Positions 5,887 to 21,164 of a DNA stretch of 64,000 nucleotides are shown here, piece after piece. A program made the translations under genes and the position numbers. The notes under the pieces are model-generated. The model saw only the letters and a program-made list of their open reading frames with translations. It did no database searches and was not told the origin of the DNA. This stretch comes from Actinomycetota bacterium (GTDB lineage Bacteria > Actinomycetota > UBA4738 > CALAEC01), in contig DASYVD010000004.1 of the NCBI GenBank assembly GCA_036000545.1, forward strand, positions 1,260 through 65,259. The letters are read 5' to 3'. How positions within the stretch are numbered: position 1 is the stretch's first letter; each line of letters opens with the position of its first letter.

Positions 5887-7104
5887 ATGATCAGGAGGTT
5901 CGGAGGAACCCCGAGACGCCTGTCGCGGCGCGAGGCCCTCGTTCAGATGGGTCGGGGCAGCACCTATCTGGGAGTGATGTCTCTCCTGGCCGCGTGCGGT
6001 GTCCGCGGGACGCAGACCCAGCCCTCCCCCACCGCGGCCAGCCCTTCGCCGCTCCCCGAAAAGGCCGGCGAGCTCCGTGTGGCGAACTGGCCGCTGTACA
6101 TCGATCTGGAGGGCGGCAAGAGCCCGACGCTGAACGCCTTCAAGAAGCAGACGGACATCGACATCACCTACAAGGAAGACATCAACGACAACGACGAGTT
6201 CTTCGGGACCGACCTCCGGCAGCAACTTGCCGCCGGGCAGCCGACGGGTTGGGACATCGTCACCATGACGGACTGGATGATCGCCAAGCTCGCCCGCCTC
6301 GGATGGATTCAGCCGCTCCACCACGAGGTGCTTCCCAACGCCACGGCCAACCTGGACCCGAAGTTCCAGGATGCGTATTTCGATCCCGGCCGGCAGTACA
6401 GCTTCCCCTGGGCCGCAGGCATCACGGGGATCGGCTACAACAAGAAGCTCACCGGTCGCCCCATCACGAGCCTCAACGACCTCTTCGACCCGGCGTTCAA
6501 GGGCAAGGTGGGGATGTTCTCGGAGATGAGGGACACGATCAACTTCGCCCTCTTCCAGCTGGGCATCAAGCCGCCGGAGAACGCCACGATGGACGACATC
6601 GAACGGGCGGTCGACCTGCTGATCAAGCAGCGGGACGACGGGATCGTCCGCGCGTACTACGGGAACGACTACACCGACCAGCTCGCCGAGGGGAATCTCG
6701 CCCTCACGATGGCGTGGTCCGGCGACGTCAACTTCCTGAAGCTCGACGTCCCGGAACTGGAGTTCGTGGTTCCCGAAGAGGGCGGCAACCGTTGGACGGA
6801 CAACATGGCCATCCCGATCCAGGCGGAGCATCCCACGGATGCCCACGAGTGGATCGACTTCGTGTACCAGCCCGACATCGCCACCCGCATCACGGAATGG
6901 GTGTGGTACGAGTCACCGGTGGCGGGGGTGCAGGAGCTGATCCAGGAGCACGCCAAGGAGGATCGCTCGCTCAGGCCCGTAGCGAACAGCGAGCTCGTGT
7001 GGCCCTCTGAGGACGTCCTGGCGAACACCTACGGGTACAAGATCCTCTCCGAGGAAGAGGAACAGGCCTGGCACGACCTGTTCGACCCGCTGATCCAGGG
7101 GTAG
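5887..7104 (+). CDS. potD: Spermidine/putrescine ABC transporter substrate-binding lipoprotein (Tat-type signal plus lipobox)
   Basis: It belongs to the PotD/PotF family. The N-terminus MIRRFGGTPRRLSRREALVQMG...LLAACG has a twin-arginine-like motif and a lipobox. The ATG lies 5 nt after the potA stop. Confidence 0.85.
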   Translation: MIRRFGGTPRRLSRREALVQMGRGSTYLGVMSLLAACGVRGTQTQPSPTAASPSPLPEKAGELRVANWPLYIDLEGGKSPTLNAFKKQTDIDITYKEDINDNDEFFGTDLRQQLAAGQPTGWDIVTMTDWMIAKLARLGWIQPLHHEVLPNATANLDPKFQDAYFDPGRQYSFPWAAGITGIGYNKKLTGRPITSLNDLFDPAFKGKVGMFSEMRDTINFALFQLGIKPPENATMDDIERAVDLLIKQRDDGIVRAYYGNDYTDQLAEGNLALTMAWSGDVNFLKLDVPELEFVVPEEGGNRWTDNMAIPIQAEHPTDAHEWIDFVYQPDIATRITEWVWYESPVAGVQELIQEHAKEDRSLRPVANSELVWPSEDVLANTYGYKILSEEEEQAWHDLFDPLIQG

Positions 7105-15235: not shown

Positions 15236-17143
15236 CTACTGTTGGCTGCTCTCACACCTCACGAAGGTGTCGGCACCAGGGCCGCCGAAGCAGCGGTCGT
15301 TGGTACCCCGCCCGCCGTCCAGGTGGTCGTTGCCCCGGCCACCGAACAGCCTGTCGTTGCCGCGGCCGCCCAACAGCGTGTCGGAACCACGGCCTCCGCG
15401 GAGCACGTCCCGGCCACGGCCGCCCCTGAGGGTGTCGGCGTTCCTGCCGCCACGCAGGTCGTCGGCGCCACGGGCTCCCCGGAGGTCGTCCGCCCCCGCG
15501 CCGCCGCGCCCGAGGTCCGCACCGGCACCCGCCAGCAGGAGGTCGTTGCCGCCCAGCCCGCTGAGGGTGTCGTTCCCACCGAACGCGCAGATGATGTCAG
15601 CCCCGGCGGTGCCCGTCAGAACGTCGGCACCGGGAGTCCCGATCACGTCGTTCCGCGGGTCCCCCTCGTAGCCGGGGCACTCCGGCGTCGGCCCCACCAC
15701 AAAGCCCGTGTCAACGTTGAGGCCGAAGAAGCACCCGTTGGTGCACGAGTCCGCCACCGCGTCGATGTTCCCGTCGCTGTTCAGGTCCACGAGCCCATTG
15801 TTGGCGGGATCGGGAGGGTTCCCGAAGCCGCATGGGTTCGTCTCCGCGGCGTTGTTCCCGAGGATGTCGGCCCCGTCCGTGGGGTCGCCGAGGCCGGCGT
15901 CGGCCGTCTGGCCGATGAGCCCGAAGTGACAGTCGTTGAAGTTGATGAACTCGTTGCCGTCGGAGTCCACCCGGCCGCCGATCGCGGACCACGCGAAGTC
16001 GGAGTCGCTGACATCGTTATTGTCCGGATCCGCCGCGTTGAACACGGTGGGCAGCGGTCCATTCGCCACCTGGAACTCCCCGTCGATGACCTCGATCAGC
16101 ACACCGTCAGCGGTACCGTCGTAGCCGCGGAGCTCACAGTCGTCGGCGCCGGTGATCGCACCGTTGCCGGCGGTGCCGTCGTTCTCCGTCGTCCAGTTGT
16201 TGCAGTCCAGGAAGCCGTCGATGATGTGGGTGTCGCCGTAGAACGCGTTCGAATCGTCGCGGCCGGTGACCGCGCCGTCACCGTTGAGGTCGGCCACTCC
16301 GCCGACGATGGTTGGAGAGAAGCCTCCGGTGAACGCATTTGCCGGAGGAGTGGGGAACGGACCGGGCTGCGCCTCCTGCACCACGCCAGTGTCGACGTTA
16401 TGGCCGAAGAAGCAGCCGTTGGTGCAGGAATCCGCGGCGGCGGTGATCTCCCCGTCGCTGTTCAGGTCGACGAGCCCGTTGTTGGCCGCATCGGGCGGGT
16501 TCCCGAACCCACACGGGTTCGTGTTCGCCTGGGTGTTCCCGAGGATGTCCGCCCCGTCCGTCATGTCGCCGGCCCCGGCGTCGACGGTCTCGCCGATGAG
16601 CCCGAAGTGACAGTCGTCGGCAGTGATCTGCTCGTTGCCGTTGGAGTCCACCCGGCCGTTGATCGTGGACCAGGCGAAGTCGGAGTCACCCACGTCGGGG
16701 TTGTCCGGATCCGACGCGTTGAACACGGTTGGCAGCGGTCCATCGCCCACTTGGAACTCGCCGTCCACGACGCCGATGGTTACCCCGTCGGCCGTGCCGT
16801 CGTACCCAATGAGCGTACAGTCATCGGCCGCTGTGATCGCTCCGTCGCCGGCGCTGCCTTCGTTCGCCGTCGCCCCCCAGGCGTTACAGTCGAGCCCGCC
16901 GTCGATGATGTGGGTGTCGCCGTAGAACGCGTTCGAGTCGTCGCGGCCGGTGGCCTCGTTGTCACCGTTGAGGTCGGCCAGTCCGTCGAAGACCGTCGGC
17001 GAGATGCCTCCGGTAAACGGCGCAGCCGCAGCCGGGCCCGCCAGCGTGAGCTGAGTGACGAACGCCATCACGAAAAGCGCGCCCAGGGCCGCTACACGGC
17101 GGCGAGCCCTTCCCGGGCGCGTGGTCGAGCGAATCAAATTCAT
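15236..17143 (-). CDS. Secreted Asp/Cys-rich calcium-binding-like repeat protein: Tat-like signal, 2 x about 229-aa tandem domains, C-terminal RTX/hemolysin-type GG repeats
   Basis: The N-terminus RPGRARRRVAALGALFVMAFVTQLTLAGPAAAAP is Tat-like. Two near-identical modules each contain DLNGDxxxTGRDD and DLNSDGxIxAxAD (dockerin/EF-hand-like) loops plus 7 Cys. The C-terminus carries at least 10 GGxGxD-like repeats (GGRGNDRLFGGRGNDHLDGGRG). A strong RBS GGAAGGAG lies 7 nt upstream of the ATG. Confidence 0.7.
   Translation of the reverse strand: MNLIRSTTRPGRARRRVAALGALFVMAFVTQLTLAGPAAAAPFTGGISPTVFDGLADLNGDNEATGRDDSNAFYGDTHIIDGGLDCNAWGATANEGSAGDGAITAADDCTLIGYDGTADGVTIGVVDGEFQVGDGPLPTVFNASDPDNPDVGDSDFAWSTINGRVDSNGNEQITADDCHFGLIGETVDAGAGDMTDGADILGNTQANTNPCGFGNPPDAANNGLVDLNSDGEITAAADSCTNGCFFGHNVDTGVVQEAQPGPFPTPPANAFTGGFSPTIVGGVADLNGDGAVTGRDDSNAFYGDTHIIDGFLDCNNWTTENDGTAGNGAITGADDCELRGYDGTADGVLIEVIDGEFQVANGPLPTVFNAADPDNNDVSDSDFAWSAIGGRVDSDGNEFINFNDCHFGLIGQTADAGLGDPTDGADILGNNAAETNPCGFGNPPDPANNGLVDLNSDGNIDAVADSCTNGCFFGLNVDTGFVVGPTPECPGYEGDPRNDVIGTPGADVLTGTAGADIICAFGGNDTLSGLGGNDLLLAGAGADLGRGGAGADDLRGARGADDLRGGRNADTLRGGRGRDVLRGGRGSDTLLGGRGNDRLFGGRGNDHLDGGRGTNDRCFGGPGADTFVRCESSQQ
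15659..17023 (-). repeat. Intragenic tandem duplication (2 x 687 nt) within the secreted repeat protein gene
   Basis: The protein modules aa 41-269 and 270-495 are about 75% identical. The antisense frame also repeats with a 687-nt offset (ORF 15936..16124 matches ORF 16623..16925). Confidence 0.75.
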
Positions 17144-17544
17144 ACCATTGCTCCTTCCGAGATCGGCACCGCGAATGGTGCCAAATCGTTACAAATGAGG
17201 CAGCGAGCCTCGGGGTCGCACCCCGCCCGGTCGCTACCCTGGAACCGCGGATGCGGTCCCTTGAGGTTCTCACAGGCCCCCAACCGGCCTCCTTTCCCAG
17301 GTTCTACAAAGCGCAGGAACGCTACCATCCCGACAACTCGGGAAACAAGACCCAAAACCCGAGGTCAGGGAGCCCCTTGCTGGCCGTCACCGGACGTGCC
17401 AGGTCGCTCCCTCATTCCTCACCCATTGATAACGACAAGGGAAGCCGAAGGTTGCTGCCAAACTGCCTTCTTTGGCCGAACATACCGAGCCGTTAGGGCA
17501 CGGCTTCAGAGAGCAGGTGCGTGGGGGGTTAGCAGCGACAAAGG

Positions 17545-18273
17545 TCAGGCGCCGACCCGGGCGTCGGGTCCCGGACCGCTCGGAGGAACCTTAGGGTTCC
17601 CAGAAAGGGCACCAAGGACCACGTCTTCACGCACACGACCCTGTTCGTCCCACGTCCGGCGGAAGCTGTCCCGGGCCCGGTGGATGAGGGCCTTCACCTG
17701 GGCTGGAGACTTTCCCAGAGCGATTCCGATCTCGCGATGGGAGAGCCCGTGGAACTCACGGAGGACCAGGGCCGCCCGCTGTTCCTGGCACAGCCGGGAG
17801 AGGAGGGCGCGGACCCGCCCCTCCTCGGCCAGGCGTTCCACCGCGTCGAAGGGGTCGTCGTCCCCCTTCGTCCCGTTGCCGGGGTCCAACGGGATAGAGA
17901 CTCCGTTTTCCACGCGGCGGGCACGTGATCGGAGAACGTCCAGGCATACGTTCGTGGCGATGCGCGCAACCCAGGCCTTCAGGTAGGTCCCATCGAACCT
18001 GGGAAGCCCCTGGAGGACCCGCAACATCGTCTCCTGGGCCGCCTCCTCGGCGTCGTCGAGGTTGCAGAGCAAGCGGCGACACACTCTGTCGGCGAGCAGC
18101 CGGTATCGTCGGTAGATCTCCGGGTACGCGGACGGATCTCCCTCATGGAACGCGGAAACGAGGTCGCTGTCGGCTGCAGACGTGGGGGCATTAGGCAGGC
18201 GATCGTCCACGACATTTCGTCGCGGCCCCCTCCTCACGTCCACCCACCGCCTCCATGGGCCCCCGGCGGACAC
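17545..18273 (-). CDS. ECF-type RNA polymerase sigma-70 factor
   Basis: The sigma-2 region reads EIYRRYRLLADRVCRRLLCNLDDAEEAAQETMLRVLQGL. The sigma-4 region reads LSHREIGIALGKSPAQVKALIHRARDSFRR. No adjacent anti-sigma gene is present. Confidence 0.75.
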   Translation of the reverse strand: MSAGGPWRRWVDVRRGPRRNVVDDRLPNAPTSAADSDLVSAFHEGDPSAYPEIYRRYRLLADRVCRRLLCNLDDAEEAAQETMLRVLQGLPRFDGTYLKAWVARIATNVCLDVLRSRARRVENGVSIPLDPGNGTKGDDDPFDAVERLAEEGRVRALLSRLCQEQRAALVLREFHGLSHREIGIALGKSPAQVKALIHRARDSFRRTWDEQGRVREDVVLGALSGNPKVPPSGPGPDARVGA

Positions 18274-18351
18274 GGCGACATCGGGAGATCGCTGCGAGGT
18301 TACTTGGTCTCGGGAATCCGAATCAAGACCCGGCGGGGACCGTCCGACGCC

Positions 18352-19683
18352 TTACGCGGAAGCCCGAACCGAAACCACCGGAGGAAGGTGCTCGACCAGA
18401 CGGCCCCAGGTCACTCCGCCGTCCGCCGACCCGAACACCTCGCCGGACTCGGCCCCGAAGAAGAGGCCCAGCGGATCTCGCCCGTCGTGGCAGAAGGCCT
18501 GCCGGAGCACGGTCAGGTACGCCTCGTCCTGAGGAAGCCCATCGAAGCGCGCTTGCCATGAACCGCCGCGGTCGCTGGTCTCGAACACGCGAACCTTCCC
18601 GTCGGGGGTCACGCGGTCGAAGTCCCCACGCAGGGGAATGACGAATGCCCGGTCGGAGTCCCTCGGGTCCACGACCAGGGGGAAGCCGAAGTCTGAGGGC
18701 AGCCCCTCCCCGATGTCCTGCCAGGTCTCACCGGCGTCGTCGGAGCGGTACACGCCGCCGTGGAACTGGAGGTACAGGGTCTCGGGCTGCACGGGAGAGC
18801 GGTGGACGTTGTGCACACACAGGTCCGTCGCACCCTCCCGGGCCTCCTCCGGCAGGTACGGTGCAACGAGCCCCTTGATCCCCCGCCGCCACGACTTGGC
18901 ACCGTCATCGGTCAGCCACACTCCTGCCGCGGAGATCCCCACCGCCATCCGGTCGGGATCGCCCGGCCACGTGGCGATGGAGTGGAGACAGAGGCCTCCG
19001 GCCCCGGGCTCCCACGTCGGCCGGCTCGGCTCCTCCCATAGGCCACGGTTGAGCGCCCAGGTCCGGCCACCGTCCTCGCTTCGGAACAAGGACGCGGGGG
19101 CGACGCCCGCCCAGAGGACGTCGTTCTCCTCACCCGGTTGGATCACCCAGATCCGCTCCACCGCGGCGCCGGCCTCCTCGGGGAAGGCCGGCCCGGACGA
19201 CTGCTCCCAGTCCTTCACTGTGGGATCGTCGGCGACGTACAGCCGCGGCCCGTACTGCCCGTGAGTGACCGATGCGAGATAGGTTCCCGAACGCCGATCC
19301 CGGATTGCGTACTCGACGGTCTGTCCGGAGAACTGCCGGGCAGCCACCTCCATCCGCCCGCCTCGCGGGCCGCGCAGGACGTACAGCCCCTTGCGGGTGC
19401 CGACCAAGAGCTCCCCGGCGTCGCTTCCCCCGGAGATCGCCCCCAGGACGTCCACCCGGTCAACCGTTGCCACGGACACGTCGAGCCCGGCGCGCTCTCC
19501 GTTCACGAACAGCTTGACGTGCTCGCGGACCGAGCCGCGTTCGTCGAGGATCCATCCCGTGAGGCGGGGGTGTGTCTCCTGGAGGCGACGAACGACTTCA
19601 CCGAGGGTCTGCCCCTCGACCTGCAGAGCGCCGTTCCCTCCGGCGAGCTCCCGAAGCGGAGATCGCAGCCGAACCGTAGTCAC
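18352..19683 (-). CDS. Fusion protein: N-terminal MoaD/ThiS-like ubiquitin-fold domain ending in Gly-Gly, plus a BNR/sialidase-like (Ycf48-like) beta-propeller
   Basis: The first 86 aa, MTTVRLRSPLRELAGGNGALQVEGQTLGEVVRRLQETHPRL...VDVLGAISGG, have MoaD/ThiS topology with a terminal GG. The remainder carries at least 5 BNR motifs (SEDGGRTW, TDDGAKSW, SDDAGETW, SDRGGSW, SADGGVTW). Confidence 0.7.
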   Translation of the reverse strand: MTTVRLRSPLRELAGGNGALQVEGQTLGEVVRRLQETHPRLTGWILDERGSVREHVKLFVNGERAGLDVSVATVDRVDVLGAISGGSDAGELLVGTRKGLYVLRGPRGGRMEVAARQFSGQTVEYAIRDRRSGTYLASVTHGQYGPRLYVADDPTVKDWEQSSGPAFPEEAGAAVERIWVIQPGEENDVLWAGVAPASLFRSEDGGRTWALNRGLWEEPSRPTWEPGAGGLCLHSIATWPGDPDRMAVGISAAGVWLTDDGAKSWRRGIKGLVAPYLPEEAREGATDLCVHNVHRSPVQPETLYLQFHGGVYRSDDAGETWQDIGEGLPSDFGFPLVVDPRDSDRAFVIPLRGDFDRVTPDGKVRVFETSDRGGSWQARFDGLPQDEAYLTVLRQAFCHDGRDPLGLFFGAESGEVFGSADGGVTWGRLVEHLPPVVSVRASA

Positions 19684-19692
19684 GTTCGAAGC

Positions 19693-20325
19693 CTAACCCA
19701 AGAGCGTCCTCAGCTCCTCCGCGGGGATGGCGCCTTCCCGGAGGATCTGCGGCTCCGGTCTCGAAAGGTCCACCACGCTCGACGCAACGGCGCCAACAGG
19801 TCCGGCGCACAGGTATACCGCCACCGCCTGACCGAACAGGGACCGGACGCCCGGGCAGTCGGACGGCGTCGGCCCTCCGGATAGATTCGCGCTCGTCACG
19901 GCGAGCGGGCCGGTGATTCTCAACAGATCGAGGGCCAGGGGATGATCGGGCACACGAACACCGACAGTGCTCCTCTCGTCACCGAGGTCCCATCGCCTCG
20001 AAAGCTCGCTCCTCGGAAGCACGAGGGTCAGTCCGCCCGGCCAGAACCTGTCCCCGAGGCCGCGGGCCCGGTCGTCGAGGACGCCCACTCGAGCGGCGTC
20101 CTCCACGCTGGCGGCGAGCACCGGGAGGGTCAGGTCTCGGGAACGGCGCTTCGCGGAGAATAGGGCCGCTGTGGCCTTCTTGCGGTCTGGTCGGGCGCCG
20201 ATCCCGTAGACGGTATCGGTCGGCACGACCACGAGCTCGCCCGCCTTCAGTGCCTGAGCCGCCGCGTCCATCGCCGTCTCGAGGTCCTGTTGGTCCGCTC
20301 CGGTCAGCTCGAACAGCTCGCTCAC
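19693..20325 (-). CDS. tsaC: L-threonylcarbamoyladenylate synthase (TsaC/YrdC family)
   Basis: The YrdC core reads GELVVVPTDTVYGIGARPD ... LAVTSANLSGGPTPSD. The start was trimmed to a GTG abutting the prmC stop. The longer ORF 19693..20466 overlaps prmC by 144 nt and has a G/R-rich N-terminus. Confidence 0.7.
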   Translation of the reverse strand: MSELFELTGADQQDLETAMDAAAQALKAGELVVVPTDTVYGIGARPDRKKATAALFSAKRRSRDLTLPVLAASVEDAARVGVLDDRARGLGDRFWPGGLTLVLPRSELSRRWDLGDERSTVGVRVPDHPLALDLLRITGPLAVTSANLSGGPTPSDCPGVRSLFGQAVAVYLCAGPVGAVASSVVDLSRPEPQILREGAIPAEELRTLLG

Positions 20326-21164
20326 CGGCTCACCCGAGGGAGCCGTCCCCGGACCACCCGGTCCCGCCCGGCCAGGTCCGGCAACACCTCGACCGCCTCG
20401 AACCGCTTCCCCACGATCGCCATTACCTCGTGTCCTTGCGCCGCGCCGACCTCTACCACTAGCCACCCGCCGGGGCGGAGCCAGGCCGGCGCCTCGGCCG
20501 TGAGGCGGCGGTGCACGTCCGTTCCGCCGACCAGGGCGTCGTACGGCTCCGCCTTCACCTCCTCCGGGAGGGAGTCGTACTCCTCGCGCGTCACGTACGG
20601 CGGGTTGCTCACCACGAGGTCCATGTGTCCTCGGACGTCCTGGGGAAGCGGAGACAGGAGGTCACCGTGGAGGACGGTGAGCTCGAGGGTGTGGCGAGAG
20701 GCGTTCGCCTTGGCCACCGCCACGGCGTCCTCGGAGACGTCGGTCGCGTAGACCGAGGCGTCGGGACGCCGGCGCTTGATCGCCAGGGCCACGGCGCCCG
20801 TGCCCGTGCCGACGTCGGCGACGAGCGGCGCCTCGGTCCCATCCAGGGCTTCGAGCGCTCGCTGCACGACCGTCTCGGTTTCCGGCCGCGGCACGAACAC
20901 CCCTGGCGCCACTCCTAGCACGAGGTCGAGGAACTGCTGCTCGCCGGTGAGGTACTGGAGAGGAACACCGTGGCACCGCTGGCACAGCGCCCGGCCGAAG
21001 AGCTTCGCGGTGCGAGTGTCGAGTCCCTGGGCCCGCGCGTAGAGGCCCGCCCGGTCCGTGCCGAGGAAATACTGGAGCAGCGCCTCCGCTGTCTCCCGGG
21101 GGCTCTCGACGCCATGGCGAGCGAGGTAGTCGGTCGCTCGCACGACGACCTCAGACGGCCTCAC
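20322..21164 (-). CDS. prmC: Release factor glutamine N5-methyltransferase
   Basis: It has the DVGTGTGAVALA SAM motif and the VSNPPYV (NPPY) catalytic motif. It lies immediately downstream of prfA. Confidence 0.8.
   Translation of the reverse strand: MRPSEVVVRATDYLARHGVESPRETAEALLQYFLGTDRAGLYARAQGLDTRTAKLFGRALCQRCHGVPLQYLTGEQQFLDLVLGVAPGVFVPRPETETVVQRALEALDGTEAPLVADVGTGTGAVALAIKRRRPDASVYATDVSEDAVAVAKANASRHTLELTVLHGDLLSPLPQDVRGHMDLVVSNPPYVTREEYDSLPEEVKAEPYDALVGGTDVHRRLTAEAPAWLRPGGWLVVEVGAAQGHEVMAIVGKRFEAVEVLPDLAGRDRVVRGRLPRVSR

Follow-up and report, generated by a model that had tools for sequence, protein, structure and literature searches.

A single gene in the DNA analyzed here raises the question of what a ubiquitin-like domain ending in Gly-Gly (GG) is doing at the front of a beta-propeller. 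The DNA is a stretch of 64,000 nucleotides (nt), referred to below as the window, from an Actinomycetota bacterium (GenBank assembly GCA_036000545.1, contig DASYVD010000004.1), and the gene had been picked out at positions 18352-19683 in a sequence-only reading of the window that was silent as to strand. These coordinates correspond exactly to one open reading frame (ORF; 18352..19683), which we place on the minus strand, with a GTG start at 19683, a stop codon at 18352-18354 and a product of 443 residues; a 99% identical homolog (P0001) also has 443 residues. The parts of this gene listed below, and the neighboring genes tsaC/sua5, for the sigma factor and for the RTX-like protein, are on the minus strand as well. 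Ubiquitin descends from bacterial proteins of the MoaD/ThiS type that terminate in GG; ubiquitin-like proteins activated by an E1 enzyme are recognized by their exact GG terminus; and the partners known for such proteins are MoaE, ThiG, CysM and tRNA thiolases (or an E2). The gene encodes a cytoplasmic two-domain protein, in which a beta-grasp domain is joined by a short disordered linker to a seven-bladed propeller of the 3B7F family, and it represents, in fused form, a widespread, self-contained pair of genes for a MoaD-like protein and a propeller.

The sequence-only reading had likened the first 86 residues to a MoaD/ThiS/CysO carrier ending in AISGG, while allowing that this region might fail to score as a beta-grasp. 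Residues 1-86 (19426..19683) do score as this fold, and AISGG occupies residues 82-86. The Pfam ThiS model PF02597 (gathering cut-off 22.5 bits) scores residues 1-86 at 30.7 bits and the entire protein at 25.6, and its last profile positions are taken up by Gly85-Gly86, the final one aligning with Gly86. The NCBIfam SAMP1 model (NF041918) matches from end to end with an E value of 2.5e-12, its 47.1 bits being below the family cut-off of 60, and the model for archaeal-type MoaD (TIGR01687) likewise remains below its cut-off (29.2 bits vs. 49.5). By sequence, residues 1-86 also match the solved structures of SAMP1 (2L83, 3PO0, and 4HRO) and of CysO (3DWG chain C), with E values of 5e-5 to 3e-4, and one further ThiS/MoaD chain of solved structure. 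An AlphaFold2 model built on an alignment of 57 sequences comprises two confident domains [mean predicted local distance difference test (pLDDT) score 89, predicted template modeling score (pTM) 0.77]; its pLDDT is 82-93 over residues 1-80, and residues 1-81 follow the order beta-beta-alpha-beta-beta. These matches and the model indicate that residues 1-86 are a true MoaD/ThiS-family (SAMP-type) beta-grasp, with the GG exactly at the domain boundary.

Residues 91-443 (18355..19413) are assigned to the Asp-box (BNR) propellers by both sequence and structure comparison. A phmmer search against the Protein Data Bank matched 3b7f_A over residues 91-441 (E 5.8e-56, 34% identity), and 3B7F was also the top Foldseek match (E 2.7e-31, template modeling score 0.89 on the target), with GH74 enzymes, DAIP, sortilin and Ycf48 following far below. 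The claim that the protein continues into a sialidase or Ycf48-like BNR propeller thus held as regards the Asp-box propeller and failed as regards its kind, as the domain belongs to neither of these groups. The count of at least five S-x-D-x-G-x-T-W motifs was essentially right. Four exact copies of [ST]-x-D-x-G-x-[ST]-W were found by motif scan, namely SEDGGRTW (residues 202-209, 19057..19080), SDDAGETW (residues 314-321, 18721..18744), TSDRGGSW (residues 369-376, 18556..18579) and SADGGVTW (residues 419-426, 18406..18429), together with one variant that has Ala for the family-consensus Gly (TDDGAKSW, residues 258-265, 18889..18912) and one degenerate copy (residues 151-159). Shuffled sequences held a mean of 0.004 Asp-box matches, and five or more were reached in none of 20,000 shuffles. 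The structure 3B7F (Reut_B4987, Ralstonia eutropha) is annotated as "glycosyl hydrolase, BNR repeat," and a survey of Asp-box propellers lists it as seven-bladed with its function "not known" (PMC2716378). As candidates for the class of the domain we also considered the GH74 xyloglucanases, in which two tandem seven-bladed propellers form the catalytic cleft, and rejected them, since there is one propeller only in our protein and the template modeling score on GH74 targets is only 0.3.

The joining of the two domains is real and conserved. A search of a large protein collection returned 7,707 matches, of which the best 120 (66-99% identity) were examined, and PF02597 and PF15902 occurred together in all 120. 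At the DNA level, the reading frame is uninterrupted across the junction in 16 independent contigs, and the in-frame linkers on these contigs differ in length, on which grounds we rejected an assembly or frameshift artefact. Named genome bins that carry the fusion are labeled Actinomycetota, Gemmatimonadota, Acidobacteria, Myxococcota and Solirubrobacteraceae.

The most constrained feature of the junction is the diglycine itself, Gly85-Gly86 (codons GGG GGA, 19426..19431), which we consider a candidate processing site because of its invariance and because the split homologs described below stop at it. The sequence-only reading had raised the prospect of homologs without the GG. In the event, [S/T/A]GG is invariant in all 121 sequences of the alignment (the query plus 120 matches), and the GG is also retained by every fused representative, down to 43% identity. 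The residues that follow it are free to vary. The linker in the window protein is SDAG (residues 87-90, 19414..19425), and its counterparts in homologs are 4-39 residues long and unrelated in sequence, 60 of 118 having 4-7 residues. Among the same 118 sequences, the residue directly after the GG, the P1' position of a putative cleavage site, is Ala 97 times and Ser 15 times. The only segment of the AlphaFold2 model with a pLDDT below 50 is residues 82-87, the AISGGS tail. The fusion protein therefore has the layout expected of a fusion precursor processed by a JAMM protease, namely a GG at the junction and then an exposed linker. Its GG is internal, with 357 residues after it, and is not a free C-terminal carboxylate, a feature that is present in the split orthologs. 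An internal start codon that would yield a separate propeller from the fused mRNA was also considered and rejected, as 16 loci show no conservation of codon usage at residues 88-94.

Relatives of the fusion protein at 45% identity or less are mostly propellers alone, of about 360 residues and beginning at query residue ~91. Immediately upstream of the propeller gene in the split module is a gene for a MoaD/ThiS protein of 86-94 residues that ends at the GG. Such pairs were found in Thermoleophilia, Ralstonia, Burkholderia, Cupriavidus, Pseudomonas aeruginosa, Mitsuaria and one species of Bacteroidota (Chondrinema). In the annotated replicons (Ralstonia, P. aeruginosa, Burkholderia, Mitsuaria, and Chondrinema) the small gene encodes a "MoaD/ThiS family protein" of 89-90 residues and is directly upstream on the same strand, and the propeller is named "exo-alpha-sialidase," "glycosyl hydrolase" or "hypothetical protein." Translation confirmed that the small protein ends in SGG followed by the stop codon in Ralstonia, Pseudomonas, Burkholderia sp. 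JSH-S8 and Chondrinema, and 120 of 120 small-protein homologs from Burkholderiaceae end in [ST]GG-stop. A collection of plasmids and chromids contained 54 records with a MoaD-like match covering at least 80% of the query; among the records listed in both searches, which include Cupriavidus metallidurans CH34 and Paraburkholderia, the MoaD-like match was always immediately upstream of the propeller match.

Sequence comparison ties the fused and separate forms together. The window beta-grasp is 50% identical, without gaps over residues 1-86, to the stand-alone ThiS-family protein of a Thermoleophilia-type locus (L028), and 28-38% identical to the small proteins of the proteobacteria and Bacteroidota. 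The subfamily has a signature of its own, consisting of [WY]-[IL]-L-D-[DE]-x-G-x-[VLI]-R-x-H in mid-protein and a terminal [ST]-G-G, and we judge the fused and stand-alone beta-grasps to be orthologous. The closest clade of separate propellers, which includes bins labeled Solirubrobacteraceae and Gaiellales, is 57% identical to the window propeller, whereas one fused lineage is at only 43%; fusion or fission has therefore occurred more than once.

In the Thermoleophilia-type loci of this closest clade (L028, L029, and L032) the ThiS-family gene ends in PAITGG-stop and the start codon of the propeller gene follows 2-4 nt later, and the two genes of split loci appear to be translationally coupled. 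At the L028 junction (5975-6003), and likewise at those of L029 and L032, the GG codons GGA GGC, which a TGA follows, spell a GGAGG resembling a Shine-Dalgarno sequence, 6-8 nt before the propeller start codon, and it may be that the diglycine codons double as the ribosome-binding site of the partner gene. Two further relatives of the module drew our attention. The first 67 residues of the homolog P0149 resemble an out-of-frame reading of an upstream MoaD-like gene, and back-translation, on which this assignment is based, fits AISGG-TGA just before a propeller ATG; the probable explanation is a wrongly called start codon in a split locus, and not a new N-terminal domain. A bin labeled Ktedonobacteraceae encodes a stand-alone beta-grasp relative of 97 residues (L017 3698-3991) that is 43% identical over residues 3-63 and keeps the REHVKLFVN motif; it ends in SSSGV, not GG, and there is no propeller ORF of at least 60 residues within ~860 bases downstream.

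Conservation over 79 aligned full-length representatives was used to look for functional positions in the propeller. Outside the Asp-boxes the most conserved polar residues are K98, H234, S251, H291, Q306, H308, R313, R357 and R394, to which a G-F motif at 332-334 can be added. All residues that were checked in 3B7F are present there (K98, H234, H291, Q306, H308, R357, and R394). His234 (18982..18984; 90% conserved) is a candidate functional site where the inner strand of blade 4 begins; His291 (18811..18813; 92%) would occupy the same position in blade 5; His308 (18760..18762; 92%), in a Q-x-H-x-G motif, would be in the blade 5 loop that links strands 2 and 3; and Arg394 (18502..18504; 96%) is on the inner strand of blade 7. 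In the Asp-box class, the Asp-boxes lie on the "bottom" face, where they connect strands 3 and 4, and functional sites are on the opposite face (PMC2716378). When placed by the DSSP strand order and this rule, rather than by coordinates, the conserved polar residues would sit at inner-strand tops or in strand 2-3 loops, that is, on the functional "top" face. As the chain would by the same reasoning enter the propeller at the bottom of strand 2 in blade 1, the beta-grasp would be tethered to the Asp-box face, and an uncleaved GG tail with a linker of 4-7 residues would fall short of the top face in cis.

The reading that we favor, tentatively and with real reservations, is that the two proteins are a dedicated pair in which the small protein acts in its free, GG-ended form, activated by an E1 and served by the propeller on the acceptor side, and that the fused forms are cleaved after Gly86. 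The two would occur fused and split just as MoaD-MoaE and ThiS-ThiG do. The active small protein would carry a free Gly-Gly carboxylate, which a housekeeping E1-like enzyme of the MoeB/MoeZ type, encoded elsewhere, would adenylate and probably thiocarboxylate. In the fused forms the beta-grasp would be released by cleavage after Gly86, for which, by analogy, the likeliest agent is a JAMM/MPN+ metalloprotease also encoded elsewhere. The propeller would bind the GG tail at the conserved His/His/His/Arg cluster on the face away from the Asp-boxes, and would there either use the activated C-terminus on a substrate or act as its receptor. There is a precedent for such processing, as the JAMM protease DR0402 cuts the MoaD-MoaE fusion of Deinococcus to expose its C-terminal Gly, a cleavage needed for activity, and MoaX of Mycobacterium tuberculosis behaves like the Deinococcus fusion (PMC8832034). 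Cleavage of fused ThiS/MoaD proteins by JAB proteases had also been predicted (PMC1779556). The sequence-only reading compared the gene with "CysO-CysM-type fusions"; the analogy is a loose one, in that the documented cleaved fusions are those of MoaD and MoaE.

Several observations weigh against this proposal. As in the sequence-only reading, no E1-like (ThiF/MoeB) or JAMM gene came to light in the window, whether called genes and ORFs were annotated with Pfam, which left a few of the ORFs without a match, or motifs were scanned for. Six-frame scans of the window and 27 loci for the JAMM motif H[ST]H..S..D and the E1 motif D.D.V..SNL.RQ gave no matches, and no such gene was found within ~5-10 kb of the module in any locus fetched; a third conserved gene of any kind (E1, JAMM, or other) was sought in ~16 neighborhoods of fused and split forms, and none was found. 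Related propellers occur without an adjacent MoaD-like gene in Streptomyces and Rhodobacter, and in one protein of 704 residues (P0125) a Ser/Thr protein kinase domain (residues 10-262) is joined to a propeller of the same family (residues 309-666, 45% identity). This kinase fusion has no transmembrane segment between its domains and retains the three conserved His, which hints that the propeller is able to serve as a cytoplasmic sensor or binding domain. From the propeller-only relatives and the kinase fusion it follows that the core function of the propeller is not strictly dependent on a dedicated ubiquitin-like partner. The clustering of the His and Arg residues, and the face to which they are assigned, are themselves deduced from strand order. 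Finally, the module has often switched between its fused and split forms, a possible sign that the C-terminus need not be free.

This easy switching, which suggests that covalent linkage is tolerated, is also an argument for the main rival of cleavage, namely that the beta-grasp is never released and is a built-in adaptor, regulatory or stabilizing subunit on the propeller, in the manner of TmoB-type or other non-conjugated beta-grasp subunits, with the GG acting as a flexible hinge. The lack of a protease or E1 gene in every neighborhood fits such a permanent two-domain protein, as does the fact that as few as 4 residues join the C-terminus of the beta-grasp to the N-terminus of the propeller. 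We think it somewhat unlikely, however, because a hinge leaves unexplained the exact GG stop of every split form (120 of 120), the invariance of the GG beside a linker that is free in both length and sequence, and the predominance of Ala at P1'. An improbable alternative is that the beta-grasp is a working small subunit of molybdopterin synthase, i.e., a MoaD paralog, or a shared sulfur carrier for MoaE, and the propeller an accessory factor for molybdenum cofactor (Moco) or sulfur metabolism. This idea draws on the resemblance of the profile to archaeal MoaD/SAMP1 and on two loci. On a Chondrinema litorale plasmid (NZ_CP111049.1 157829-162415; L034 17830-22416) the neighbors of the pair are XdhC and a cysteine desulfurase-SufU-MoaE operon whose MoaE has no separate MoaD annotated alongside, and among the neighborhoods examined it alone has a clear sulfur or Moco theme; in L032 a MOSC-domain gene is ~750 nt upstream of the pair. 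Such a context was nevertheless seen in only 1-2 of the ~16 neighborhoods, which counts against this alternative and against our own proposal alike. No Moco genes are near the fusion gene in the window, the MoaD-type models stay below their cut-offs (29 vs. 49.5 and 47 vs. 60 bits), and the signature motif of the subfamily co-varies with the presence of the propeller.

A layout of N-terminal ubiquitin-like domain, GG and cargo mirrors that of the eukaryotic fusions of ubiquitin to ribosomal proteins, and, with a linker that is predicted to be disordered, it would suit a pro-protein in which the ubiquitin-like part only aids the folding or stability of the propeller and is then removed without a further role. 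We regard this as highly improbable, since split loci retain the small protein as a gene of its own and conserve it strongly, with 75-98% identity across Burkholderiaceae, which suggests that the free small protein has a role in its own right. There are, lastly, the public annotations of "exo-alpha-sialidase" or "photosystem II stability/assembly factor-like," which would make the protein either a sialidase or glycosidase that is secreted or an assembly factor like Ycf48, with the N-terminus as a targeting region. This is scarcely credible. The fusion protein has no signal peptide, hydrophobic N-terminus or transmembrane segment, a scan for the FRIP motif ([FY]R[IV]P) found it absent, the N-terminus is a folded beta-grasp, and there is one propeller here vs. 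two in the GH74 enzymes. The PSII_BNR/Ycf48 models are far under their cut-offs (PF14870, 14-15.6 bits vs. 27; NF010237, 15 bits vs. 326), and of those for GH33 sialidases BNR_2 (PF13088) gave no match at E ≤ 1 and BNR_3 gave 10.5 bits vs. a cut-off of 27. With both the Ycf48 and the GH-type models scoring below their cut-offs, the public names can be taken to mirror the repeats only.

In the window, the gene order around the fusion gene is rho-rpmE-prfA-prmC-tsaC, then the fusion gene, then an ECF (extracytoplasmic function) sigma factor. The stop codon of the upstream gene, tsaC/sua5 (19693..20466), is 9 nt before the GTG of the fusion gene, and as neither a promoter-like site nor a terminator was found when looked for at this junction, the fusion gene is probably co-transcribed with prfA-prmC-tsaC. 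The ECF sigma factor (17545-18273) is directly downstream. This placement is not kept in homologs.

Two genes downstream of the fusion gene, past the ECF sigma factor, is a gene (15236-17143, minus strand) for a protein of 635 residues that has two internal repeats of ~190 residues (FTGG.SPT...DLNGD...DSNAFYGDTHIIDG.LDCN.W...) and, at its C-terminus, a run of RTX-like GG.G.D repeats. Pfam annotation of a near-identical JGI gene shows HemolysinCabind and a faint match to Dockerin_1. The fusion, sigma factor, and RTX-like genes together (15236-19683) separate tsaC from a run of genes for a low-molecular-weight phosphatase, rpiB, glyA, a glycosyltransferase and ATP synthase, and they resemble an insertion into what we take, from the usual actinobacterial gene order, to be a conserved housekeeping cluster. 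Horizontal transfer was considered and gave no signal, the GC content being uniform (0.65-0.71).

Around the module in other genomes, genes of thiol and redox metabolism and of electrophile detoxification recur loosely. These encode peroxiredoxin, ahpC-ahpF, glutathione S-transferase, glyoxalase/VOC, MBL-fold hydrolase, DJ-1 and thioredoxin-family proteins, all from common families, and they occur at L020 9489-9941 (a peroxiredoxin directly upstream), L035 2601-4928, L029 4842-5426 and on the flanks in L025, L028, and L031. In L030 (3907-4731, minus strand) a second, shorter propeller gene of the BNR/Sortilin type (274 residues) adjoins a fused homolog in divergent orientation. The PADLOC models of defense systems gave no matches for the fusion protein or for the Ralstonia pair.

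Among characterized systems, the MoaD-MoaE fusions (MoaX/Rv3323c of M. tuberculosis and DR2607 of Deinococcus) are closest in architecture, as in them too an N-terminal, GG-ended beta-grasp is fused to a functional partner and the pair is split elsewhere. They differ in that the partner is MoaE, whereas here it is an Asp-box propeller, and in that the known examples depend for their activity on cleavage at the GG (PMC8832034), whereas here we infer the cleavage. SAMP1 of Haloferax volcanii (NF041918; 2L83, 3PO0) is the best-scoring characterized relative of residues 1-86, its C-terminal [ST]GG included; our protein nonetheless scores below the cut-off (47 < 60), is bacterial and fused, has its own signature, and gives no indication of conjugation. 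The CysO-CysM-Mec+ system of M. tuberculosis (3DWG chain C) also couples a GG-ended carrier of the MoaD/ThiS type to an acceptor enzyme of its own, and the GG is acted on by a JAMM enzyme (PMC1779556). CysO, however, is not normally fused to CysM, and there is no gene for a pyridoxal phosphate (PLP) enzyme, a JAMM protease or an E1 near the window gene. On the propeller side, 3B7F itself (Reut_B4987/YP_299179.1 of R. eutropha JMP134) shares the family, the seven blades and the conserved His, Arg and Lys, and differs as a stand-alone propeller from a structural-genomics project; its relative in C. metallidurans CH34 does have a MoaD-like neighbor. The sortilin Vps10 domain, Ycf48, and DAIP, which are non-enzymatic and bind peptides or C-termini, have the same fold class and by analogy suggest a possible tail-binding role for our propeller, but they are only 12-17% identical, are extracellular or lumenal, and are without a ubiquitin-like partner.

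An association with propellers, BNR repeats or sialidases is not mentioned in two Aravind-group surveys of beta-grasp and ubiquitin-like domains (including PMC1779556), and full-text literature searches, within a searchable library, on the pairing and on 3B7F/Reut_B4987 returned only the Asp-box survey (PMC2716378) and no description of the pairing. The fusion architecture is visible in automated database annotations. What is known, then, is a MoaD/ThiS beta-grasp fused or adjacent to its partner; what appears to be new is a cytoplasmic Asp-box propeller as a class of partner.

The module ranges from Pseudomonas, Burkholderia and Ralstonia to the Actinomycetota, with gene fusion and tight adjacency across several phyla, and it ties a distinct beta-grasp subfamily to a propeller family that has had a crystal structure (3B7F) since 2007 and no assigned role. 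It is possible, if doubtful, that it represents an unrecognized bacterial ubiquitin-like pathway in which the 3B7F-type propeller partners the GG-ended protein, either as a new class of thiocarboxylate-dependent sulfur-transfer enzyme or as a receptor or ligase for the activated C-terminus, and in which the fused forms are matured at the GG. A sulfur-transfer or conjugation system of this kind would add a new type of acceptor to ubiquitin-like biochemistry. The presence of the module in genetically tractable bacteria (P. aeruginosa, Burkholderia, Ralstonia, and C. metallidurans) makes the proposal directly testable and, if it is true, it would provide a function for a large family that at present carries the erroneous name of "exo-alpha-sialidase" or "photosystem II assembly factor-like."

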